Assembly: GCA_903831045.1 (NCBI GenBank)
Contig: CAIKWG010000045.1
Span: 3,088-67,087 of the forward strand
Direction: 5' to 3'
DNA: 64,000 bases
From: an uncultured archaeon
Lineage (GTDB): Archaea; Nanobdellota; Nanobdellia; Pacearchaeales; GW2011-AR1
Below are positions 8,946 through 49,419 of the stretch, one piece after another. The position numbers and the translations under genes are program-made. Under the pieces are notes generated by a model. The model saw only the letters and a program-made list of their open reading frames with translations. It made no database searches and was not told the DNA's origin. The stretch's first letter is position 1, and the number at the start of each line of letters is the position of its first letter.

Positions 8946-9548
8946 ATGAAAATACTTGCAGTGGGAGACTTACATGGAGATAGTGGCTTAGCAAGAAAAC
9001 TAGCAGAAAAAGCAAAAAAAGAAAATGTAGATCTAGTAATTATAACTGGAGATTTAACTTTTCTAGAACAATCTACTTATCAATTAATTGGACCCTTTGA
9101 AAGAGAAGGAAAAGATGTTTTGATTATTCCTGGAAACCATGAATCTAATGCTACGATGAATTTTTTAGAATCAAAATACATGAAAACAAAAAATATTCAT
9201 GGAGCTCATTCAGAAAAAAACGGAATAGGATTTTTTGGAGTTGGATATGCAACAACTGCAGGACCTTTTGCAATTGAAGAAAAAGAAATGATGCATTTAT
9301 TAAAAAAAGGTCATGAAAAGATTAAGCATTTAGAAAAAAGCATAATGGTAACCCATATGCATCCAGAAGGAAGCTCTTCTGAAAAAACAGGATTTAAGGG
9401 TTCAAGCTCAATAAAAAAAGCAATCAAAGAATTTCAACCAGATGTTGCATTGTTTTCTCATATTCACGAAGCAGGTGGAGTAGAAGATAAAATTGGCAAA
9501 ACAAGATTGATTAATGTTTCAAGAAAAGGAACTATTTTTGAGATTTAA
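8946..9548 (+). CDS. Calcineurin-like metallophosphoesterase
   Basis: Motifs 'AVGDLHGD', 'ITGDLT', 'PGNHE', 'VTHMHP' and 'SHIHEAGG'. Confidence 0.75.
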   Translation: MKILAVGDLHGDSGLARKLAEKAKKENVDLVIITGDLTFLEQSTYQLIGPFEREGKDVLIIPGNHESNATMNFLESKYMKTKNIHGAHSEKNGIGFFGVGYATTAGPFAIEEKEMMHLLKKGHEKIKHLEKSIMVTHMHPEGSSSEKTGFKGSSSIKKAIKEFQPDVALFSHIHEAGGVEDKIGKTRLINVSRKGTIFEI

Positions 9549-10396
9549 TTTCTCTTTCCAGATTCAAAGGCTCTTCGAGTTGCTTCTTTCATTTTAATTA
9601 AATCTTCTAAAGAAATATTTTTAAAATTATTCTCAAGGTACATTTCAACTGCCCCAATTAAATCTGATAATTCTTGCAAGGCCATTAATTTATTTTCCTG
9701 AGTAACTGCATCCTTAAATTCTAAAAATTCTTCATTAATCTTAGAATAACTTCCTATTTCTCCTTTGGGAATATCCTTTAGATGGTATGATTTTTTTTCC
9801 AATCCCAAAACTTGACTAAGCCTAGGTTCTGCAACACCAGTTCCATATATCCAAGAAAAATTATCGTAATTTCTAAGCCCATAAGATCCAAGTTCAATTT
9901 GACTTTTCTTAGATAGTATATCTTTTCCTTCAAAAGTATCGATTATTTCAATATCAAGATATTTTTTAAAAAAAGACTCTGCTGTCTTTAAAACATCATG
10001 AACATTATTTTCAAATTTGTCCTTAGAAAAGTTCCCATATCCCAAGAAATCAATAAGCTCTACTTTCTCAAACCAATTAAAGTGAAGATTATCAAGAATT
10101 TTTTCATCTCTGAAACAAGGAGTACAACAAACATATTTTCCAGGAACCAATTTATTCTGCATTATTAATTCTAAAAAAGATTGTTCTCCAGAAGCAACAT
10201 TACATCCAAGAAAATTATCAAACAATTTAACTCCTTTTGGAGCAGTTATTGTATTTGCTTTTTCAGAAACAATCCATGGCACTTCAAGATATTCAAAACC
10301 TTCTGAAACATAAAACTCAATAGCATGAGAAATCTTAGAGTAATCTATTTTAAAATTACTCTTCAAAAAGTGTTCCAAATAAGGTTTTAATTCCAT
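9545..10396 (-). CDS. Class II aminoacyl-tRNA-synthetase-like catalytic core fused to MazG-like all-alpha NTP pyrophosphohydrolase domain
   Basis: Motif 1-like 'EGFEYLEVPWIV', motif 2 'CFRDE..LHFNWFEKVE' and motif 3-like 'GTGVAEPRLSQVL'. C-terminal 'EEFLE-x15-ELSD' acidic pairs. No tRNA-binding domain. Confidence 0.55.
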   Translation of the reverse strand: MELKPYLEHFLKSNFKIDYSKISHAIEFYVSEGFEYLEVPWIVSEKANTITAPKGVKLFDNFLGCNVASGEQSFLELIMQNKLVPGKYVCCTPCFRDEKILDNLHFNWFEKVELIDFLGYGNFSKDKFENNVHDVLKTAESFFKKYLDIEIIDTFEGKDILSKKSQIELGSYGLRNYDNFSWIYGTGVAEPRLSQVLGLEKKSYHLKDIPKGEIGSYSKINEEFLEFKDAVTQENKLMALQELSDLIGAVEMYLENNFKNISLEDLIKMKEATRRAFESGKRN

Positions 10397-10952
10397 TTTC
10401 TATTTTTTTTGAATATTTAATAATTTCAGTTAAATCTCTATTTCCATAAATAATTCCAACTTCCCCATCATTAGTTTCCCCCTTGAATTCGCAAGCCACA
10501 CAAGGATTTCTCAGAATAGAATCTTTATCAGGATTAGAATCAATACCCATAGGAGATTTACAAGTATGCCTTAATTTCCAAGTTAATTCTTCTGTTTTCC
10601 GATTATAATTTCCCCCAAGATAGGGATACTTTCCAGAAATCAAAATAGATTCTGGATGAAATTCAATTAGATAATTGATTTTATTTGCATTGACTTTTAT
10701 TTCAGAAATATTTCCATTTTCAATAACCAATTTTGCAAGATTGATTTTAAGCTCTCTATTTGAAGTTTCAAAATACAAATTTAATAGTCTATACTCATTA
10801 TTCATAGCATTATACTTATCCCAAACGTCTCCAGCAAGCTCACTTCCATAATCTTCAACTATACTTTTAGTAAGTTGATATTGATATTCTACTTCTTCCT
10901 TTAATTTTTCTATTCTTTTCTTTAATTCTAGTTCAATTTTTTTATTTTCCAT
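10356..10952 (-). CDS. ORFan, coiled-coil N-terminus (operon paralog family, member D)
   Basis: 198-aa ORF starting with 'MENKK' inside the repeated junction. Its C-terminal 'LTEIIKYSKKIENGIKTLFGTL' resembles the tails of the 11597-13315 proteins. Confidence 0.5.
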   Translation of the reverse strand: MENKKIELELKKRIEKLKEEVEYQYQLTKSIVEDYGSELAGDVWDKYNAMNNEYRLLNLYFETSNRELKINLAKLVIENGNISEIKVNANKINYLIEFHPESILISGKYPYLGGNYNRKTEELTWKLRHTCKSPMGIDSNPDKDSILRNPCVACEFKGETNDGEVGIIYGNRDLTEIIKYSKKIENGIKTLFGTLFEE

Positions 10953-11172
10953 TTTCCACTTCTCCTTCCAAACTTTTTTGTTTTTTGTAAGCTACACAGT
11001 TAAGATAATCGTCACATCCCGAATCACAATCTGGATGACCTTGAGGCATTCCATACTCTCCATAATAGGTTCTTAACGTACAAACATAACTTCCTAAAGA
11101 AGAGTAAAGTAAATCATAACCCTCAAATTGAGAGTATGGACAATCTTTTCCACATTGTTTTTTATTTTCCAT
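10942..11172 (-). CDS. Cys/Tyr-rich mini-protein C1 (CPYS family)
   Basis: ATG at 11172 gives 'MENKKQCGKDCPYSQF...'. It has 6 Cys and ends 'EGEVENGK'. It overlaps both neighbours by 11 nt. Confidence 0.5.
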   Translation of the reverse strand: MENKKQCGKDCPYSQFEGYDLLYSSLGSYVCTLRTYYGEYGMPQGHPDCDSGCDDYLNCVAYKKQKSLEGEVENGK

Positions 11173-11374
11173 TTTCCACTTCCTTTTCTTTTTGCATTCG
11201 ATAAACTTCACATTCAAGATGATTAGTTTTTGGACAAATAAGATATCCTAAAGGTTCATAATAATGATCATAAAGTATTCCTAAAGGAAGACATTGATAA
11301 TTCCCTAGAGAACGCAGAGGATCATAAAGATCAAATTTAGAATAAGGACAATCCTTTCCACATTGTTCATTCAT
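11162..11374 (-). CDS. Cys/Tyr-rich mini-protein C2 (CPYS family)
   Basis: ATG at 11374 gives 'MNEQCGKDCPYSKF...'. It ends 'KEVENGK' and is a paralog of C1. Confidence 0.5.
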   Translation of the reverse strand: MNEQCGKDCPYSKFDLYDPLRSLGNYQCLPLGILYDHYYEPLGYLICPKTNHLECEVYRMQKEKEVENGK

Positions 11375-11600
11375 TTTTGACTTCCCCATCCAATTTAATT
11401 TTATTAAGATATTCTAAACATTTCAAATATTCTACACATTCACATCTCAAAAAGATAGATTCGTTCGCAAGAGCATTCTTATTTTCTTGAATAGTACATT
11501 CCCCATATTCTATTGGAAATGGAATTCCAGGAGAGAGATAATAATCTTCATAGTCAATAAGGACGTAAGGACAACCTTCAGAAAAACTATTTGTTATCAT
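11367..11600 (-). CDS. Cys/Tyr-rich mini-protein C3 (divergent CPYS family)
   Basis: '...SEGCPYVLIDYEDYY...' with 5 Cys; ends 'LDGEVKNE'. ATGA overlap with the upstream gene. Confidence 0.45.
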   Translation of the reverse strand: MITNSFSEGCPYVLIDYEDYYLSPGIPFPIEYGECTIQENKNALANESIFLRCECVEYLKCLEYLNKIKLDGEVKNE

Positions 11601-12124
11601 CCTACCAACATCTCACTCATTTTAATTATATTTTTAAGCTTAGCCATTATAGATGGTTTCAAATTCTTAGATTTATAAAAATCCAATAATTTTTCATAAG
11701 AATTAGGAAAATTTATTCCAGATTTAGAATTATACTCATACAGAACATTCATTTTTCTTTTTGCAGCATCTTCATCCTTTAACAAAATATCAACTGCAAA
11801 TTCTCCTATTGGTTTTGAAGCAGAGAATTTAAATCCCTTAGTATAGAATTCTTCAGGTTTATTCTCTCTATCCCAAGGATGCATAATTTCAAAACCTTCT
11901 TGTAAATTAACTACCTCACATTCTAGCATTTGAGAATAATCAGAAGTGTAAATTTTTAATTCTTTTTCCAGTTGAGAAAAAGATAAAACTGGAAATCCAA
12001 TATTTTCCAAAAACCCTTTCAATTTTTCACTATCCTTAATTTGCTTTTCTAAATCTTTTTTTTCCTGCTCCAAAGATTTAATATAATCATTCATTTCATT
12101 AAACGAAGTTAAAGCCATATCCAT
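11597..12124 (-). CDS. ORFan, coiled-coil N-terminus (operon paralog family, member B)
   Basis: ATG at 12124 lies 1 nt after the upstream stop (track start 12175 overlaps it by 50 nt). The tail 'YEKLLDFYKSKNLKPSIMAKLKNI' resembles A1/A2. Confidence 0.5.
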   Translation of the reverse strand: MDMALTSFNEMNDYIKSLEQEKKDLEKQIKDSEKLKGFLENIGFPVLSFSQLEKELKIYTSDYSQMLECEVVNLQEGFEIMHPWDRENKPEEFYTKGFKFSASKPIGEFAVDILLKDEDAAKRKMNVLYEYNSKSGINFPNSYEKLLDFYKSKNLKPSIMAKLKNIIKMSEMLVG

Positions 12125-12125
12125 T

Positions 12126-12746
12126 TTACCAACAACTCCATTCACTTTCTTCAGGATTTTTCTTCCTAATTTCATTTATTTGATTATAAAGACTCAAAAG
12201 CAAATCCTTCTTTACACCATGATTTTGATAAAATTCAATTATCTTATCAACATGCACAGGATGAGTTCTTTGATATCTCTCCCAATCACCATGAAGAGAG
12301 GCTCCAGAAACAGTATGTTTAGTTTGATATATTACATTCAGATAATCATATGGTCCAACATCGTGCTCATGTCTGCAAAAAATAGGCATCATCAGTTTAG
12401 AGTTTTCATCTTTTAATTCAAAGTAAAAATCAAAAATGCAAAATTTATCTTCATCACTATAATTTATTCCAGAATAATTATAACGCCCTCTTGCTTCTTC
12501 TATTTTAATTTTTTCTGCAAGCGAGTAATCCCTTGAAATAAATTCTTCTCTTTGAAAGCTTTTTCTTGAATGCCCAACCAACCTCTCGTCAGTCAAAGTT
12601 TCTACTAAGATTTCCCCAGAAAATTTCCTTAAAATTTCTGTTTGATTTTTTAATTTTTCAAGATTTTCTAAAATTTCTGTTTGATTTTTGATTCTCTCAA
12701 ATTCTTCTATTTTAGGTTTGAAATATTCTTCTAATTTTTTTGTCAT
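12126..12746 (-). CDS. ORFan paralog A1
   Basis: Clear paralog of 12743-13315 ('RDYSLAEKI', 'FCIFDFYFELKD', 'FCRHE', 'FYQNHGVKKDLL'). ATGA overlap with A2. Confidence 0.55.
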   Translation of the reverse strand: MTKKLEEYFKPKIEEFERIKNQTEILENLEKLKNQTEILRKFSGEILVETLTDERLVGHSRKSFQREEFISRDYSLAEKIKIEEARGRYNYSGINYSDEDKFCIFDFYFELKDENSKLMMPIFCRHEHDVGPYDYLNVIYQTKHTVSGASLHGDWERYQRTHPVHVDKIIEFYQNHGVKKDLLLSLYNQINEIRKKNPEESEWSCW

Positions 12747-13315
12747 CTTCTTCCTCCAAGAATTATTTCAGCAGGCTTTGCTTTTCGAAGATCATTTATT
12801 TGCGTATAAAGGTCAAAGAGAAGTTCTTTTTTTACTCCTTTAATTTCATAAAAACTTATTATTTCATCGAGAGGTTTTGGATGAAATCTTCTGGTAGTTT
12901 CAAATTCATCATAATGACCTCGATAAGAAGTATGAGTATTATAGATAACATTCATTTTATCAAATTCAAGATTTTCATGTCTACAATAAACTGGAATGCA
13001 AAGATTATATTTATCATCTTTTAGTTCAAAGTATAGATTAAAAATACAGAATTCTTCGTCATCTGAATCTTTCACTCCTCCAGGAGTATAGTGCCCAGAT
13101 AGGTTCATTATCTGGATTTTTTCTGCAAGTGAATAATCTCTGGTAATACACTCTGCTCTCTTTCTATCACGCTCATTATATCCAGAAAGCTGATCAGTTA
13201 AAGTATCTATGAATAGCTCTCCAGGAAATTTTTCAAGAAGTTCTTTTTGTCTTTTTATTTTCTCAAGCTCGTCTAATTTAGGTTTGAAGTGTTCGTCTAA
13301 GTTTTTTGTTACCAT
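12743..13315 (-). CDS. ORFan paralog A2 (first gene of operon)
   Basis: 190 aa. Shares 'RDYSLAEKI', 'FCIFNLYFELKD', 'YCRHE' and 'FYEIKGVKKELL' with A1. Confidence 0.55.
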   Translation of the reverse strand: MVTKNLDEHFKPKLDELEKIKRQKELLEKFPGELFIDTLTDQLSGYNERDRKRAECITRDYSLAEKIQIMNLSGHYTPGGVKDSDDEEFCIFNLYFELKDDKYNLCIPVYCRHENLEFDKMNVIYNTHTSYRGHYDEFETTRRFHPKPLDEIISFYEIKGVKKELLFDLYTQINDLRKAKPAEIILGGRR

Positions 13316-13423
13316 CTTAATTATCCCTAGACTTGTATTATTAATGACTCTTTCTGTACAAAATTTGTCAATAGTGTTGTATAAAACATAAAATATTATA
13401 AATAGAAGAAATCAAGAAACATT
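13316..13423. promoter_or_regulatory. Divergent control region between the ORFan operon and the wHTH regulator
   Basis: 108-bp AT-rich gap between head-to-head starts (13315 minus, 13424 plus). TATA-like 'tattataaata' lies ~25 nt upstream of 13424. Confidence 0.4.
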
Positions 13424-14266
13424 ATGCTAAACAATGAAACAATTCAAAAAATAGAAAAATTTGTTTCTCAAAAACCAAGAAGTGTTCAAGAGATTGCAAC
13501 ACATCTGGATAAAAATTGGAGAACTGCAGATAGATATATCAAAGAAATTGAAGATGAAACAGGAACAATCTCCACACGAACATTTAGAGAAGGAACCAGA
13601 GGAGCACTAAAAATTGTTTATCTTCTGAATCCAGATAAAATAAGCTCTTCAAAATTCCAAGAAGAATTAGAAGAAAGAATAATGAGACTTAGAAGAAAAG
13701 AAGAATTCTCTGCTTTTGATATATTCCAGTGTGTTCCAGAAAAAAATAAATTAGCAATTGTAGAAGAAGAAATATCCGAAGCATCTACTAATCTTCAAGA
13801 ACTAATATCTATCCTAAATGGAACAGAAAAAGAATTAAAACTCTTTTCAGGAAATCTTTCTTGGATTAATCTAAAAAAAGGAAAAATAGATTTATTCAAT
13901 ACATTAGAAAAACTTGTAAAAAGGGGAGTTAGAATTAAGGTCCTTTGTAGAGTCGATTTAGATGGGGTAGATAATATAAAACAAGTTTTACAATTAAATT
14001 ACAAATATGGGAAAGAACTAATAGAAATAAGACACCGAGAGCATCCAATTAGAGCATTTGTCATTGACAATACATCAATCAGATTGAAGGAAATAAAAGA
14101 ACCAACAGGGAAGATAAAAGAATTAGATAAAAAGAAATTTATCTTTTATACCATCCGAGATAAAGAATGGGCAGAGTGGCTATCAAAGATATTCCTTAAA
14201 ATGTTCAACACATCAATTAGTGCTGAAAAAAGAATCACAGAGCTAAATAAACTCATAAAAAAATAA
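13424..14266 (+). CDS. Putative transcriptional regulator (N-terminal winged helix, TrmB-like architecture)
   Basis: 'PRSVQEIATHLDKNWRTADRYIKEIE' HTH. The C-terminal ~170 aa are unassigned and resemble TrmB-type effector domains only loosely. Confidence 0.45.
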   Translation: MLNNETIQKIEKFVSQKPRSVQEIATHLDKNWRTADRYIKEIEDETGTISTRTFREGTRGALKIVYLLNPDKISSSKFQEELEERIMRLRRKEEFSAFDIFQCVPEKNKLAIVEEEISEASTNLQELISILNGTEKELKLFSGNLSWINLKKGKIDLFNTLEKLVKRGVRIKVLCRVDLDGVDNIKQVLQLNYKYGKELIEIRHREHPIRAFVIDNTSIRLKEIKEPTGKIKELDKKKFIFYTIRDKEWAEWLSKIFLKMFNTSISAEKRITELNKLIKK

Positions 14267-14322: not shown

Positions 14323-16764
14323 ATGCTAAAACCCAAAAAAACAAAGCAAGAACAAGCAGTGGAAGCTCACCTTTTTGAAAACAAGGATATTAAGCAGATC
14401 ACAGAAAAAAAAGTAAGTTCAGAACCAAGAAGAGAAGATTTACTTAGAAATACAACCGAAAAGGAAGTTACAACTTCTAATCAAACTATAGAAAAACCAA
14501 GAAAGGTTGTAGAAAAGAAAACAAAAAGAATCAATCCAAGAGATTTAGAAACAGTAGAAAAAATTGGAGAAGGATTATCCAAGGCCAAAAGAAAAAAAAC
14601 AAAGATTAATTCAAAAGGAAAATCATTCAAATCTAAAAGAACCGTAGTAAAAAGGGAAGCCTATCTCCCTCCGAAAATAATTCTAAAAAAGGGTGGCTAT
14701 GAACTAGTAATTACAGAAAAACCTCAAGCAGCAGCAAAAATTGCAGCAGCTCTAGGAACTGCAACAAAAAGAGAAATTAAGGGAGTTCCATATTATGAAG
14801 TAACACGAGATAAGAAAAAAATAATTGTTGCATGTGCAGTAGGTCATTTGTTCACTCTAATGCAAACAACTTCAGGTTCAGAAGTTCCAACTTTCTCAAT
14901 CGATTGGGTTCCGAATTTTCAAGCAAAAAAAGGAGATTTCACAAAAAAGTATTATGAAGTTCTTTTGGCCCTAGCAAAAAATGCAGGAAGTTTAACAGTT
15001 GCAACAGATTATGATATTGAAGGAGAAGTTATTGGAACAAATGTAGTAAGATTAATTTGTAATCAACCAGATGCAAATAGAATGAAATTTTCGACACTAA
15101 CTACAAAAGAATTAAACAAAGCTTATGATGAAAAATTACCTTCGCTTGATTGGGGCCAAGCGACTGCAGGAGAAACAAGACATTTCTTGGATTGGTATTA
15201 TGGTATCAACCTATCTCGTTCTTTAATGAATGCAATAAAGACAACTGGAAAGTTCAGAATAATGTCTATTGGTAGAGTGCAGGGACCAGCACTAAATATG
15301 ATCGTTCAGAAAGAAAGAGAAATTCAAGAATTTAAACCAGAACCCTATTGGCAAGTATTTGTTATACTAGAAAAACCAGAAATTGAATTAAAATATGTAA
15401 AGGATATTTTTGATAAAAAAGAACTAGATAAGTTCAAGGATTTAGAAGGAAAAACTGGAGAAGCAAGAACAGATAAGACAGAACAAATTCTTCCTCCAAA
15501 TCCGCCTTTTAATTTAACAACATTACAAACAGAATCATATAGGCTTTTTGGATACAGTCCTTCAAGAACCCTACAACTTGCACAAACATTATATCTAGCA
15601 GGATTGATTTCTTATCCAAGAACTTCATCTCAACAATTACCAGATTCAATTGATTACAAACCAATTTTAGAAACACTAAAAAAACTTTACAAAGTTGCTA
15701 AATTAATAAAAAAAGAAAAACCAATACAGGGAGAAAAAACAGACCCAGCCCATCCTTCTATTTATCCAACTGGAAACCAGCAAGTTCTTTCTGGAGATGA
15801 AGAAAAGATATACGACTTAATTGTAAGAAGATTTTTATCTCTATTTTGTGAAGATGCAATAATTGATAAAAAAAGAATAGTTGCTAAAATAGAAAAATTT
15901 GATTTTACAACAAATGGAGCAGAAATAAGAAAGAAAGCCTGGTTAGAGATTTATCCTCAAAAAATTAAAGAAACTCAAATTCCAGATGTAACTGGAACAG
16001 TTAAAGTAAAATCCTCACGAACAGAAGAAAAGGAAACTCAACCTCCAAAAAGATATTCTCAAGCTTCGATAGTATCAGAGCTAGAAAAAAGAAATCTGGG
16101 AACTAAGGCAACTCGTGCAGCAATTCTAGAAACACTCTATGACAGAGGATACGTTAAGGAAAAATCAATTGAAGCAACACCCTTGGGAATTTCTTTAATT
16201 AGCACGCTAGAAAAATATTCTCCAATAATTATTGATGAAGAATTAACAAGAGGACTGGAAGAAGACATGGAACATCTTGCAGAATCTAAAGAAAAAGATC
16301 TAAAGAAAAAAGAAGAAAATATTCTAGAAAAAGCAAGAGAAATTATAAGAAAAATAACCACAGACATGAAACAAAAAGAAAATAAAATAGGAGAAGAATT
16401 ACTTCAAGCTCAAACAGAATTAAGAGAAATGGAGCAAAAAGAAAATACATTAATCCAATGCCCTAAATGTCACAAGGGAGATTTAAGAATTACCTACTCA
16501 AGAAAGAACAGAAAATTCTTTGTAGCCTGTTCAGCCTATCCTGATTGTAAAAACACATATTCTCTTCCTCCATACGGAGCATTAAAGAGAGTAGACAAAG
16601 TTTGTGAAGATTGTAATTTTCCTATGTTAATGTCTCTAAGAAAAGGAAAAGGTCCATGGATATTCTGTTTTAATCCAGAATGCCCAAAAAACAAAAAGAG
16701 AGTTGAAGAATACAACGAAAAGAAAGAAAGAGAAAATACAGAAGCTTCTAATCTTTCTGCCTGA
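14323..16764 (+). CDS. topA: DNA topoisomerase I/III (type IA) with Lys-rich N-terminal extension
   Basis: Toprim 'LVITEKPQAA' and 'ATDYDIEGE'; active-site 'ISYPRTSSQQL'. C-terminal zinc ribbons 'CPKCHKG...CSAYPDC' and 'CEDCNFP...CFNPEC'. Confidence 0.9.
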   Translation: MLKPKKTKQEQAVEAHLFENKDIKQITEKKVSSEPRREDLLRNTTEKEVTTSNQTIEKPRKVVEKKTKRINPRDLETVEKIGEGLSKAKRKKTKINSKGKSFKSKRTVVKREAYLPPKIILKKGGYELVITEKPQAAAKIAAALGTATKREIKGVPYYEVTRDKKKIIVACAVGHLFTLMQTTSGSEVPTFSIDWVPNFQAKKGDFTKKYYEVLLALAKNAGSLTVATDYDIEGEVIGTNVVRLICNQPDANRMKFSTLTTKELNKAYDEKLPSLDWGQATAGETRHFLDWYYGINLSRSLMNAIKTTGKFRIMSIGRVQGPALNMIVQKEREIQEFKPEPYWQVFVILEKPEIELKYVKDIFDKKELDKFKDLEGKTGEARTDKTEQILPPNPPFNLTTLQTESYRLFGYSPSRTLQLAQTLYLAGLISYPRTSSQQLPDSIDYKPILETLKKLYKVAKLIKKEKPIQGEKTDPAHPSIYPTGNQQVLSGDEEKIYDLIVRRFLSLFCEDAIIDKKRIVAKIEKFDFTTNGAEIRKKAWLEIYPQKIKETQIPDVTGTVKVKSSRTEEKETQPPKRYSQASIVSELEKRNLGTKATRAAILETLYDRGYVKEKSIEATPLGISLISTLEKYSPIIIDEELTRGLEEDMEHLAESKEKDLKKKEENILEKAREIIRKITTDMKQKENKIGEELLQAQTELREMEQKENTLIQCPKCHKGDLRITYSRKNRKFFVACSAYPDCKNTYSLPPYGALKRVDKVCEDCNFPMLMSLRKGKGPWIFCFNPECPKNKKRVEEYNEKKERENTEASNLSA

Positions 16765-17212
16765 TAAAAGAATATTTATTAAAAATATTTTTGTCTAACT
16801 TTAGTTTTCCGGAAGCATCTTCAAGAGGAATTAAAGAACCAGAAAAAAATTTCAAATTAACTAACACCTCATTATTCGCTAACAATTCTTCCAATTTTCC
16901 CAGACTATCTGGTAAGCTGACCTTGCCAATACACATCCCTTTTAATCTTCTTGAAGAAAACCCCTTTTTAACCTTAAGAGAATCTTTTCCAGAAAGGTAG
17001 TTCAGGTGATAAAATCCAGCAAAAAGATAGGAATAATCTTCTAATTTTTTATCTAATTCTCCTCTCTCAACGGAGGGAAAATTTTCTTTGAATTTTTCTA
17101 ATTCTTCATACCAAACAGGCTCCATCTTTATCACAACATTTCCTTTGGGAGGAAAAAAAACATACCTAATTCCATGATAGGCAGAAAATCCTGCTAATAG
17201 ACTTATGCTCAT
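16748..17212 (-). CDS. Hypothetical protein with N-terminal TM segment
   Basis: Track start 17266 is GTG and overlaps nreA. The first ATG at 17212 gives 'MSISLLAGFSAYHG...'. Confidence 0.35.
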   Translation of the reverse strand: MSISLLAGFSAYHGIRYVFFPPKGNVVIKMEPVWYEELEKFKENFPSVERGELDKKLEDYSYLFAGFYHLNYLSGKDSLKVKKGFSSRRLKGMCIGKVSLPDSLGKLEELLANNEVLVNLKFFSGSLIPLEDASGKLKLDKNIFNKYSFIRQKD

Positions 17213-17256
17213 AAATAATGAACCAAATGAAGGTTTAAAAAAATTTATATCCAAGA

Positions 17257-18465
17257 TTAAAACCACTTTCTCAAGCTTGTCTGGGATTTCATATTAGAAA
17301 GTAACTTACTTTTGGAATAAATTAAATCATTATCAAAGTCATATTTTATTTCAGCAATTTTCTTTGCACTTTCAAGAAGTTCTTCATTAGTTTCAAATTT
17401 CATAACCCCTCTAGCAAGAGCCTTTCTAACACTCTCCCTCACAACCCACACTCCAAGAGCAGCCCAATAGGAAGGAGTTTCTAATCTAATCACAAGTACA
17501 CTTGCCTGTTTTCTAATTGAATTAAGATATTCTAATATAGGCAAACGTGAAGCATAATAACCTCCAACACAATTAGAAGCATAATCTTTTCTTCCTTCAT
17601 AGCCTTCATAGTCAGTAGAGGCTTTCATTTCAGAAGTTGGATTCCATGAACTTCCGGGATAATATAATTCAAATAATTCATAGGTCCAAACACCAGGAAA
17701 AAGTAAAATTAAATATTGATTTCCTAAAAATTCTCCAAAAAATAATTCATGGTTTTCAATCCAAGGATATTCTCTTACAGATTTCCACAGATATTTTCCA
17801 ATCGTATCATCCGTAGCAGTGATACTCCAACGAGTAGGAACCATCTTTTTATCTTTCTTCAATCCGAGAACCCCGACGGATAAAATCTTTGCTAAAGAAT
17901 ATTCATCAAAATTATTTTTATACAAATAATTCATACCTTGAACAGATTTTATATCATCATTAATAACCTTATCAACTTTTTGTTCAATTTTAACATTAGA
18001 AACAACCTTAGCATCTTTCAAATCAGCTTTCATTCCATGCGGAGTTAGAACTTTATCGTTCTTTCTTCCAAATTCCAATCTATTTTTTAATTCAATTTCA
18101 ACATCAACAGGTCTAGATGCAATAGCAATATCTTTTGCAATTTCAACAAATCTTTTATTTAATCGAACATCATGAACTTTGGATTTAAAGCGAGAATTAA
18201 GTAAGCCCTCACGTAAATGCACCACATCAGATATAGAAAAATTTTCTTTAGCCCAATATTTCATATCATCATAAACCCAGGCATTATCATCTCTTTCAAG
18301 AGGACTCATAATTCCAACATTAACATTAGGATACTGAAGTTTAGAACCAACGAAAACAGAAGGCGGGCTAATGGATTCAAACTTGGATATTTTCTTTAAA
18401 TCATTATAATTAAACTTGAACTTTGCTGCTTTGGTTACTGCTTCAAATTTAATATCAGAGCTCAT
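17257..18465 (-). CDS. nreA: Archaeal DNA-repair protein NreA family
   Basis: 'SPPSVFVGSKLQYPNVNVG', 'PTRWSITATDD', 'GGYYASRL' and 'LGVWVVRES' match the conserved blocks I recall for the Nre (DUF650/651) family. Confidence 0.7.
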   Translation of the reverse strand: MSSDIKFEAVTKAAKFKFNYNDLKKISKFESISPPSVFVGSKLQYPNVNVGIMSPLERDDNAWVYDDMKYWAKENFSISDVVHLREGLLNSRFKSKVHDVRLNKRFVEIAKDIAIASRPVDVEIELKNRLEFGRKNDKVLTPHGMKADLKDAKVVSNVKIEQKVDKVINDDIKSVQGMNYLYKNNFDEYSLAKILSVGVLGLKKDKKMVPTRWSITATDDTIGKYLWKSVREYPWIENHELFFGEFLGNQYLILLFPGVWTYELFELYYPGSSWNPTSEMKASTDYEGYEGRKDYASNCVGGYYASRLPILEYLNSIRKQASVLVIRLETPSYWAALGVWVVRESVRKALARGVMKFETNEELLESAKKIAEIKYDFDNDLIYSKSKLLSNMKSQTSLRKWF

Positions 18466-18487
18466 AAAAATTAAAGAGAATTTAGTA

Positions 18488-18505
18488 TTAATAAGGATTT
18501 ATTGT
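18488..18505 (-). promoter_or_regulatory. Upstream motif/TATA region of nreA (shared with radB)
   Basis: On the minus strand it reads ACAATAAATCCTTATTAA. Its proximal end lies 22 nt upstream of the nreA ATG, and it is near-identical to 19710-19726. Confidence 0.45.
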
Positions 18506-18520
18506 CTCTGAAAGATAGAA

Positions 18521-18994
18521 TTATTTAGGAAGAAAAAGATTAAAATGTCGGTTATATTGATCTAAATTATAAATAGAAAAAATTTGATTATTTTCAGTTT
18601 CATTATCTAACATCTTAATATAGGCCAATTTTCCTTTAACATTTTTCAAATCTGTATAATCGGCTGGAACCACAATTTTTCCCACATGAACTATCTCTGA
18701 CTCAGAAGGCTCTGTACATCTTACTAAACCAAACTCTTTCTTTTTTCCTTCACCCGCATTTTGGTATTGTAATTGAATCTGATAAAACCCAATAAAATCT
18801 TTTTGATAATCAACAAAATTCTTCAAACAATGAAGACTAAACTTTTCTTCATTTTTATCAAAAAAACTCTTAAAATCTTGCCAATCAATAGAATCAATTC
18901 CAATAAATTCTTTTACTCTCATAATAAAAGTATAAATTTTTCGTTTATAAAGATTATTACACTCAAAACAATCCTCTTCTGAAGATTCCCTCAT
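18521..18994 (-). CDS. Hypothetical protein
   Basis: ORF between radB and nreA. Track start is TTG. The first ATG (18994) overlaps the radB end by 32 nt; an alternative ATG is at 18922. Confidence 0.4.
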   Translation of the reverse strand: MRESSEEDCFECNNLYKRKIYTFIMRVKEFIGIDSIDWQDFKSFFDKNEEKFSLHCLKNFVDYQKDFIGFYQIQLQYQNAGEGKKKEFGLVRCTEPSESEIVHVGKIVVPADYTDLKNVKGKLAYIKMLDNETENNQIFSIYNLDQYNRHFNLFLPK

Positions 18995-19688
18995 TTTTAA
19001 TGATAAATCCAATTTCTTTTTCAGGAAGATTTCTATGTTTTAACAAAACTGCTTTCTTACCTCTATCATTTTTTAATTCGATTATGCACTTACACCAATA
19101 CTTAAACAAATCACCTCCAACAATATTCATTTTTCTTTCAACTCCATTTCTAAAATCATCCTCAGATAAAAAATCTCCATAAACTTGATTAGTAATTATA
19201 ACGGGGATTTTTTGCTTTCTAGCAATTTCTGCTAGCATTCTCATTTGCATTGCAACCTCTCGATTAATCTCTTTGACTTTATCCCCCTCTCCAGATTGAA
19301 TTGCATCTCCTATCTCAAGTCTATACAACATAGCCATAGAATCAACAATAATCAAACCTGCATGCTCTTTCTTAATTTTATCAAGAAGTTTTTCAAACAC
19401 CTGCCTTTGCTCATCAAAATTTGTGGGCCCTAGTAATAAAATATTCTCAAGAATTTCTTCATATTTATCTCCAACAATTTGTTTAACTCTCTCAACAGAA
19501 AATCCTCCTTCCGTATCAATAAATATAACTTTATTTCCATGCCTAGATTGACTACATGCAGCAAGAATTGCAAAATTAGTTTTTCCACTTCCAGGAGGAC
19601 CTGCAATCATAGTAATCACATCATTCTCATAACCCCCAAAAAGCCATTTATTCAAATCATAACTTCCAGTAGAAATTTTTTCTGTCAT
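18963..19688 (-). CDS. radB: RadB-type recombinase paralog (RecA/RadA family)
   Basis: Walker A 'GPPGSGKTNFA' and Walker B 'LIIVDS'. About 240 aa with no N-terminal HhH domain. ATG at 19688 (track start is TTG). Confidence 0.8.
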   Translation of the reverse strand: MTEKISTGSYDLNKWLFGGYENDVITMIAGPPGSGKTNFAILAACSQSRHGNKVIFIDTEGGFSVERVKQIVGDKYEEILENILLLGPTNFDEQRQVFEKLLDKIKKEHAGLIIVDSMAMLYRLEIGDAIQSGEGDKVKEINREVAMQMRMLAEIARKQKIPVIITNQVYGDFLSEDDFRNGVERKMNIVGGDLFKYWCKCIIELKNDRGKKAVLLKHRNLPEKEIGFIIKNEGIFRRGLF

Positions 19689-19709
19689 AAAATTCAAACA
19701 AAATTAGAA

Positions 19710-49301: not shown

Positions 49302-49419
49302 GCCCTGATAGCTCAGTTGGTTAGAGCGAACGGCTGTTAAGTCAGAGAAAAACTGACTCACAAGAAATTGTGATTTCGCAGCAACCGTTAGGTCGTAGGT
49401 TCGAGTCCTACTCGGGGCG
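49302..49419 (+). tRNA. tRNA-Asn (anticodon GUU) with 44-nt intron at canonical 37/38 position
   Basis: Exon 1 is 49302-49339 (GCCCTGA TA GCTC AGTTGGTTA GAGC G AACGG CTGTTA). The intron is 49340-49383. Exon 2 is 49384-49419 (A CCGTT AGGTC GTAGG TTCGAGT CCTAC TCGGGGC G). Confidence 0.85.

Follow-up and report, generated by a model that had tools for sequence, protein, structure and literature searches.

Overlapping gene pairs are translated via termination-reinitiation, and intragenic Shine-Dalgarno (SD) motifs are typical of such pairs, even in archaea that make little or no use of SD motifs on leading genes (Huber et al. 2019, PMC6728339). Among genes for the subunits of heteromeric complexes, short overlaps are enriched (Huber et al. 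2023, PMC10666635). Here we analysed a 64-kb stretch of the archaeal contig CAIKWG010000045.1, called the window in its whole length, in which eight open reading frames (ORFs) lie head to tail and tightly overlapped on the minus strand, from 13315 to 9545, in the order H-G-F-C3-C2-C1-D-E. The ORFs C3, C2 and C1 encode small cysteine-rich proteins, and an exact 25-nt repeat is located at the junctions of C2 with C1 and of C1 with D. An earlier reading of the letters without database searches (the sequence-only reading) had described the three mini-protein ORFs, and its statements at the level of the sequence were correct. All coordinates are positions in the window unless a related locus (L0xx) is named, and database protein entries are given as P0xxx.

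The 25-mer GAAGTGGAAAATGGAAAATAAAAAA was found exactly twice on the minus strand, 220 nt apart, as had been read. No further copy was present in the 64 kb, even with up to three mismatches, and two matches to the 25-mer were obtained in none of 100 dinucleotide shuffles. In one frame the 25-mer encodes E-V-E-N-G-K-stop and in the +1 frame M-E-N-K-K, and it links C2 to C1 and C1 to D with an overlap of 11 nt each (ATGGAAAATAA). The proposed dual-coding module that couples the stop of one gene to the start of the next was thereby supported. The repeat had been read as joining the array. This holds exactly for the C2/C1 and C1/D junctions, whereas at the C3/C2 junction a related variant of distinct sequence (GGGGAAGTCAAAAATGAATGA) gives an 8-nt overlap (ATGAATGA). 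The copy between C2 and C1 extends from the purine-rich GGAAGTGG via the ATG to the TAA stop. The upstream frame reads GGA-GAA-GTG-GAA-AAT-GGA-AAA-TAA (G-E-V-E-N-G-K-stop), and the purine-rich SD-like element (GGAGAAGTGG) and the next ATG are both located within the last seven codons of the upstream gene, with the stop 8 nt past the ATG.

Twenty-one gene junctions from the window and the related loci were aligned on the downstream ATG, 19 of them being cassette junctions (window, L001-L005 and L012). The upstream stops fall a few bases past the downstream ATG at the aligned junctions. Sixteen of the 19 cassette junctions have a G-rich purine cluster (GGAG, GAGG, GGGG or AGGGAAG) at a distance of 7-16 nt upstream of the ATG, and in the three F-to-C junctions GAGG or (G)TAGG was observed only adjacent to or near the ATG. 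Among the long ORFs of the window, only 8 of 60 had an SD-like tetramer between −16 and −4, where the background is 11%. The pattern of the cassette junctions as compared with the long ORFs fits archaea that use SD motifs mainly for re-initiation at overlapping pairs. No RNA structure was found at the junctions, where the RNA was less structured than the shuffled controls (z = +0.7 to +1.6). Taken together, these results strongly suggest that the 25-nt repeat is a translational-coupling junction, at which a ribosome that ends one gene would re-initiate on the next (termination-reinitiation). A frameshift fusion of C1 to D was considered and is not needed, since there is a proper stop, an in-frame ATG with an SD-like element, and the D homologues start at that ATG.

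The acidic tail of the C proteins (L-E-G-E-V-x-N-G/E-K) is, very probably and in the main, the protein-level shadow of this nucleotide signal, because the last codons of the upstream gene hold the SD-like element and the next ATG. Proteins that are not C-like share the tail when they occupy the same slot. In L012, a 77-aa protein ends in ..KEVIKNE and a 99-aa protein in ..GSKKNE, neither of which is matched by the hidden Markov model (HMM) of the family, and a 72-aa protein of L001 that reaches only E = 0.09 with the family profile ends in ..NGEVIKNGK. The unrelated H ends in ..LGGRR, encoded by GGAGGAAGAAGATGA, which combines the SD-like element with the start of G. In L003, L004 and L005 a single G-to-A exchange converts ENGK/MENKK to ENEK/MKNKK and changes the tail and the next start jointly. 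The distant C member in L021 ends in ..LDGGVRNG-stop, with the purine tract GGGGGGGTAAGGA just 5' of the radA ATG and an overlap of 8 nt. The sequence-only reading had compared the tails to those of substrates or precursor peptides of the enzyme E; the tail tracks the downstream start instead, and E is absent from several cassette loci. More generally, C-terminal tails that look conserved in overlapping operons can be artefacts of a nucleotide signal and not motifs of the protein.

The proposal that the array arose by duplication of a unit with preservation of its junction was borne out by the N-termini and the copy numbers. C1 begins with MENKK+QCGKDCPYS, C2 with MNE+QCGKDCPYS and D with MENKK+IELEL. 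Tandem duplication or unequal recombination of a 'C body + junction' unit would have enlarged the array. In the simplest history, the duplicated unit spanned from just past the start of a C gene to just past the start of D, and because it included the junction, the new copy C1 would have gained the first five codons of D (MENKK). One C copy is present before D in L002, two in L001 and L004 and three in the window, and in L005 a C2-like copy lies immediately before D. In the related genomes, a C gene that follows another C gene starts with MENK, and one that follows F starts with MS or MN. The L002 junction differs from that of the window at 3 of 25 positions, and the two junctions of the window are more alike than the same junction compared between genomes. 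This suggests that recent duplication or gene conversion has acted on top of the dual-coding constraint to give the perfect identity of the 25 nt. The repeated junction (AAAATGGAAAATAA) may plausibly also serve as a substrate for unequal recombination that alters the copy number.

C3, C2 and C1 are three real tandem paralogues of an uncurated family of ~70-residue proteins with four cysteines. A profile of 11 close members, run without a word index against 1.84 billion representative proteins, recovered 33 relatives at E<=1e-3, nearly all of them 65-100 aa long. In an alignment of 37 sequences C49 and C59 (C1 numbering) were invariant, and C11, located in CP[YH], and C31 were kept in more than 90%. 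Since the relatives keep the four cysteines, homologues with a conserved cysteine pattern do exist. The spacing of the cysteines is ~x19, x17, x9, and the core motif of the 37 sequences is D..CP[YH]..[FW]..[DE]D...S.G.Y.C...GE[YF]G...DY..C...[DN][HY]..C..[FY]L. Acidic pI values (median ~4.8) and a high content of aromatic residues are typical of the members. Their N-termini are polar and have no hydrophobic stretch, which makes the earlier statement that they carry no signal peptide plausible. A WhiB-like Fe-S pattern (C-x17-C-x3-C-x5-C in C1) was rejected as a feature of the family, as C53 is limited to the C1 subgroup.

The frames of the C genes are conserved across six related loci. The C1 orthologues are 72-92% identical, and a codon comparison of four orthologues gave synonymous distances (dS) of 0.62-1.27, non-synonymous distances (dN) of 0.13-0.18 and dN/dS values of 0.12-0.29, as low as or lower than those of D (0.26-0.48). 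The best-conserved block of C1 across the orthologues is the mid-protein YYGEYG.PQGHPDC and not the junction. C3 is the most divergent copy with 25% identity to C1, and a C3-like orthologue holds the equivalent position in L004. C2-like orthologues were found in L005 and as P0130. The longest C2 ORF begins at 11389, and the start at 11374 (MNEQCGK) agrees with the gene call P0127 and with the N-termini of the homologues.

None of the 37 family members had a match in Pfam, and C1-C3, D, F, G and H had no significant match in Pfam, NCBIfam, PHROGs or PADLOC. Sequence and profile searches of the PDB with the C, D and FGH families gave no match. The zinc-ribbon models of Pfam and NCBIfam did not match the C family, and neither a phosphopantetheine (PP)-binding domain nor a conserved serine motif of that type was found in the 37 members. 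The family is new to curated databases, yet of a familiar general kind, the small cysteine-rich archaeal proteins.

The features of the operon and its surroundings are collected in Table 1. The window has a GC content of ~31%, and that of the operon is like that of its flanks. From H to E the successive gaps or overlaps are −4, +1, −4, −8, −11, −11 and −41 nt. The ATG of C3 overlaps the stop of F (ATGA) by 4 nt, and the longest ORF of F extends to 12175. The intergenic region between H and the divergent winged helix-turn-helix (wHTH) gene comprises 108 nt (13316-13423). No Rfam family was found in the operon region.

Table 1. Positions of the junction repeats, the operon genes and the neighbouring genes in the 64-kb window
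Feature	Position	Strand	Description
Junction copy 1	11158-11182	-	C2 tail EVENGK-stop / C1 start MENKK (putative coupling junction); exact repeat; RNA fold z = +0.67
Junction copy 2	10938-10962	-	C1 tail EVENGK-stop / D start MENKK (putative coupling junction); RNA fold z = +0.89
H	12743-13315	-	190 aa, FGH-family paralogue; first gene of the operon
G	12126-12746	-	206 aa, FGH-family paralogue; overlaps H by 4 nt
F	11597-12124	-	~175 aa from the probable start MDMALTSF; FGH paralogue family
C3	11367-11600	-	77 aa, MITNSFSEGCPYVL...DGEVKNE*; ORF, translation, family HMM 1.7e-16, gene call P0128
C2	11162-11374	-	70 aa, MNEQCGKDCPYSKF...KEVENGK*; family HMM 9.7e-22, gene call P0127
C1	10942-11172	-	76 aa, MENKKQCGKDCPYSQF...EGEVENGK*; 11-nt overlaps with C2 and with D
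D	10356-10952	-	198 aa, N-terminal coiled-coil-like region and conserved C..CxxC segment
E	9545-10396	-	283 aa, closes the operon; 41-nt overlap with D
Winged-HTH (wHTH) protein	13424-14266	+	280 aa, divergent from the operon; weak HTH and PLD-like matches only
Metallophosphoesterase	8946-9548		borders the operon block on the side opposite the wHTH gene
Archaeal DNA topoisomerase I (topA)	14323-16764	+	NCBIfam
NreA	17257-18465	-	NCBIfam
RadB	18963-19697	-	NCBIfam

A DNA-metabolism cluster at 14323-19697 adjoins the operon and consists of topoisomerase I, an unannotated 172-aa ORF, NreA and RadB, in an order that is kept in L001. This syntenic contig also holds RNA polymerase subunit L, a RadA/RadB-family ATPase and Nre. 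In the window the C array is ~2-8 kb away from topA, nreA and radB. Elsewhere in the window, a 118-nt tRNA match (Rfam, 58.8 bits) at 49302-49419 on the plus strand was not reported by ARAGORN; an intron is probable and fits an archaeal genome. One local protein has homologues labelled "Candidatus Woesearchaeota archaeon".

The operon is mostly built of lineage-specific paralogue families, and its gene content varies between close relatives. F, G and H form one family with the motifs DYS, KMNVxY and FYxxKG, and no relation of D to this family was detected with hhalign. Among the close relatives the FGH family is present in one to three copies (one in L002) and the C family likewise in one to three, D, E and J are present or absent, and the gene order differs in L012. 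In six loci (window and L001-L005) D comes next after the last C gene, and it is missing from L012/13. A metagenome scan with D gave three loci. A search of the GTDB species, each represented by one genome, gave no relative of D; these genomes probably cover the lineage poorly.

The tandem paralogues G and H share 79% identity in 89 nt of their 5' ends. Within G, a 39-nt tandem duplication (12630-12707, minus strand, 82% identity) encodes a 13-aa repeat (..IKNQTEILEN / LKNQTEILRK..) in the coiled-coil N-terminus. J is a fourth cassette family of 163-168 aa with the motif W.KIP...DL.[ST]G.LVS, encoded at L003:677-1183 in place of E and at L012:4022-4513 in the middle of the operon; like the FGH family and D, it matched nothing in the databases. 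The N-terminal extension of the C-like protein of L006 (L006:6540-6640; ..NKIRVYSRSQKEF) resembles the N-terminus of J (..EKIREYSESQLENW), which hints at possible domain shuffling among the cassette families.

In the window clade, L006/7 and L016/17, three lineages whose GC contents run from 29 to 60%, a wHTH gene on the opposite strand immediately precedes an operon that includes C. The wHTH protein of the window shares 75% identity with its L006 counterpart, and its N-terminal domain shares 57% identity over 61 aa with the homologue from L016/17, an archaeon of 60% GC. From its position, the wHTH protein is a candidate regulator of the operon. Its C-terminal half gave a weak PLD/DrmC-like match, and the gene was always found on the opposite strand, upstream of a variable operon. 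In L016/17 the homologue is located upstream, on the opposite strand, of two genes for GGSDF Zn-ribbon proteins and a C-like gene. Zn-ribbon proteins (CxxC...CPxC) with the identical end GGSDF are encoded at L006:6841-7128 and at L016:517-729 and 740-958, and they co-occur with C-like genes and wHTH in two very different archaea (39% and 60% GC).

Besides wHTH, radA was the sole other recurrent neighbour of the C family. It adjoins C-like genes in three lineages, on either side. In L014/15, two C-like genes are located 4 nt after radA (L014:231-654), and in L019 a C-like gene (804-1016) is located 28 nt after radA. In L021-23, a C-like gene (L021:4001-4216) lies downstream of an RPA gene and overlaps the start of radA (L021:4209-5249) by 8 nt. 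The RadA assignments, with 387 and 438 bits, exceed the NCBIfam equivalog cut-off of 259. The RadA proteins of L019 and L021 are 84% identical, yet the C gene is found on different sides, which argues against simple inherited synteny.

The overall explanation that we consider rather probable is an array of four-cysteine paralogues that was joined by a coupling junction and grew by unit duplication and that may encode metal-stabilised binding factors. More specifically, but only tentatively, the C proteins may be small metal-stabilised, probably Zn(Cys)4, protein-binding domains that are tied to recombination and repair or to its regulation. The link to recombination and repair is drawn because the recurrent neighbours are radA and wHTH, in three lineages each, and because the operon lies near topA-nreA-radB. 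The C proteins would be made in a fixed ratio with their operon partners, such as the coiled-coil proteins encoded beside them; among complex subunits, short overlaps are enriched (PMC10666635). A doubtful further step would be to regard the C family as a new class of metalloprotein partners or modulators of archaeal RadA-family recombinases, in analogy to DinI and RecX. The coupling to radA would then be ancestral, as in L021, where the C tail carries the putative ribosome-binding site of radA, and in this DPANN lineage the family would have moved into an operon under wHTH control beside topA-nreA-radB and been amplified there. If this were true, the array would be a tunable set of paralogous modulators.

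Several observations weigh against these proposals. The SD element was assigned by its motif only. The cysteines are single and widely spaced and do not form CxxC knuckles, and P0129 lacks C31 and P0157 lacks C11. A structure prediction had been suggested by the sequence-only reading. With the 11-sequence alignment AlphaFold2 modelled C1 at a predicted local distance difference test score (pLDDT) of 43, and with the 37-sequence alignment at 70.7 and a predicted template modelling score (pTM) of 0.49, with three short strands and a C-terminal helix at 60-73. A model was thus obtained, but it is only moderate, and Foldseek found no match to it below E = 0.3 in the PDB and BFVD. The radA-linked members belong to other subgroups with 28-37% identity to C1, L019 and L021 are fairly close relatives by their RadA, and radA itself lies outside this window. 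Finally, an 'EGVEN/LEGEV'-like tail is retained in some distant members that show no obvious overlapping gene downstream; P0138 of L019 ends in ..EGVENKVE and has no clear overlapping partner. Some role of the tail at the protein level is still conceivable.

An adenylating-type enzyme had been noticed nearby, and this is E, encoded two genes downstream of C1. E has a class II aminoacyl-tRNA synthetase (aaRS)-like core and a C-terminal MazG/PRA-PH-like helical domain. Motif 2 (CFRDE) and motif 3 (YGTGVAEPR) are present and invariant in the family alignment. The Pfam matches to tRNA-synt_2 and PRA-PH were weak, and phrog_4806 and phrog_6408 matched at 6e-39 and 1e-30. The best PDB matches of the family profile (24 members) were the catalytic cores of SerRS (5e-6), and at least 287 homologues were found, in forms of 175-195 aa (core only) and ~270 aa. 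Judged by its sequence, E is a SerRS-like class II core and not a canonical aaRS, as it has no anticodon-binding domain. In relatives (L006:5001-6487, L008:5001-6509) the steady partner of E is a short radical S-adenosylmethionine (radical-SAM) gene of 221-233 aa next downstream. In L010/11 (L010:5001-5561) an E-like core occurs alone, in a phage-like 214-kb contig. In the more distant relative L006/7, wHTH is located beside E; next come a radical-SAM gene (221 aa), a gene for a 106-aa protein that in L006 is clearly C-like in its C-terminal half, and a gene for a Zn-ribbon protein ending in GGSDF. Neither the L006 radical-SAM gene nor the 'GGSDF' zinc-ribbon proteins have an orthologue in the window.

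The C proteins could accordingly be imagined as substrates or precursor peptides of E, perhaps together with a radical-SAM enzyme, with the tail or the cysteines as the modified sites. The models would be LysW/LysX, the amino acid:carrier-protein ligases, EpmA/EF-P and the cysteine-rich precursors of ribosomally synthesised and post-translationally modified peptides (RiPPs). E is a genuine class II adenylate-forming fold within the C operon, and in L006/7 the genes for E, the radical-SAM enzyme, the C-like 106-aa protein and the Zn-ribbon are packed into one tight cluster on the same strand. However, C is found without E in L001, L003 (where E is replaced), L005, L012/13 and L016/17, with the cassette flanks visible, and E is likewise not seen in L014/15 and L019, which are short contigs, or in the radA locus L021. 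In six-frame HMM scans, E was found with a radical-SAM gene but without a C-like ORF in L008/9, and the E-like core alone in L010/11. The tail is accounted for by the junction. Conservation and purifying selection extend over the whole 70 aa with a peak in the middle of the protein (YGEYG.PQGHPDC) and show no leader/core layout, and there is no PP-binding or LysW-like signature. The sequence-only reading itself had offered the link to E as inference only. Its basis is gone with the loose linkage of E and C in both directions and the junction-derived tail, and what the L006 cluster leaves of it is decidedly improbable. The 25-nt repeat is no evidence for a peptide-modification pathway.

The position of wHTH directly upstream, on the opposite strand, of C operons in three lineages would also agree with C proteins that are micro-proteins binding or modulating the divergent 280-aa wHTH protein, with the operon as its regulon. 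We regard this as unlikely, as the radA-linked members have no such regulator nearby (L021) and the adjacency of a divergent regulator usually means 'regulated by' and not 'binds to'. It is quite improbable that the block from H to D is a variable defence, mobile or viral-derived island whose small acidic proteins act as inhibitors or DNA mimics. The gene content does differ at this site among close relatives, the families are restricted and fast-evolving, and the proteins are acidic. Against this, no significant PADLOC match was obtained and no significant PHROG match for C, D and FGH, and no relatives turned up in IMG/VR viral contigs (pattern scans with D, C and FGH) or in GenBank phages and PLSDB plasmids (tblastn). 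The GC content is that of the flanks, no integrase, repeats or att-like flanks were seen around the cassette, and conserved housekeeping-type genes are located on both sides. The AT-rich sequence (29% GC) and the A-rich repeat could suggest chance ORFs or pseudogenes and a low-complexity coincidence. This reading is refuted, and its probability negligible, by the shuffles, by dN/dS well below 1, by the frames kept in the six related loci and by distant homologues that retain the four cysteines. Compared with the repeat, the more useful product of the analysis is a defined uncurated family (~37 members recovered) that has no Pfam or PDB relatives and two recurrent partners, radA and wHTH. DPANN genomes are dominated by hypothetical genes, and a testable lead into recombination or repair would be of moderate value to the fields of archaeal DNA repair and small proteins.

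The C proteins can be compared with several known systems. RecX and DinI are small modulators of the RecA filament that are encoded beside recA in bacteria and can be translated together with it, and DinI has ~80 aa and an acidic C-terminal helix. Neither is known to have a cysteine-metal site. The likeness is one of working only: in both cases small acidic proteins are encoded by genes adjoining a recombinase gene, and C-like genes abut or overlap radA in three lineages. In contrast, no similarity in sequence or fold was detected, and the window copies are not beside radA. The archaeal zinc-finger micro-proteins of the Haloferax volcanii HVO_2753 type are cytoplasmic, have fewer than 100 aa and carry four cysteines in paired C(P)xCG knuckles. 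Like these, the C proteins are four-cysteine archaeal proteins of less than 100 aa that have no enzymatic domain and probably act through partners. Unlike in these, the cysteines of the C family are single, ~19, 17 and 9 residues apart, and no zinc-ribbon or fold match was found.

LysW combines a Zn site with an acidic tail at its C-terminus, and the amino acid:carrier-protein ligases are truncated SerRS homologues. The C locus is similar in that the gene of a small protein lies close to that of an ATP-dependent ligase and that SerRS cores are the nearest relatives of E among solved structures. It differs in that the C family has no EDWGE tail, CxxC zinc ribbon or phosphopantetheine-binding domain, the C1 tail ..EGEVENGK ends in lysine, the operon has no ATP-grasp gene, and E is dispensable at the C locus in relatives. 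With the SCIFF/ranthipeptide and QhpC-type RiPP precursors the C proteins share the small size and the cysteine-rich character, and the L006 cluster has a radical-SAM gene. That gene, however, is short (221 aa), has no SPASM-type extra cysteine clusters and is absent from the window, and the C proteins are conserved over their full length, have predicted secondary structure and no leader/core split. The obligatory linkage to a maturase that defines RiPP systems was not found, as E is optional and a radical-SAM gene is absent from the window.

The junctions resemble the overlapping coupled pairs (PMC6728339, PMC10666635) in that the genes are co-directional, the start lies inside the 3' end of the upstream gene and the SD motif is in the upstream coding sequence; the products of such known pairs often interact. 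The overlaps of 8 and 11 nt seen here differ from those commonest elsewhere, 4 or 1 nt. A further difference is that the whole module of SD element, ATG, stop and the first five codons was apparently duplicated with the gene, which would have produced the exact repeat and given the new copy an N-terminus. The repeat would thus be a neat but ordinary case of a tandem duplication that copied a coupling module and grafted the N-terminus of one gene onto another.

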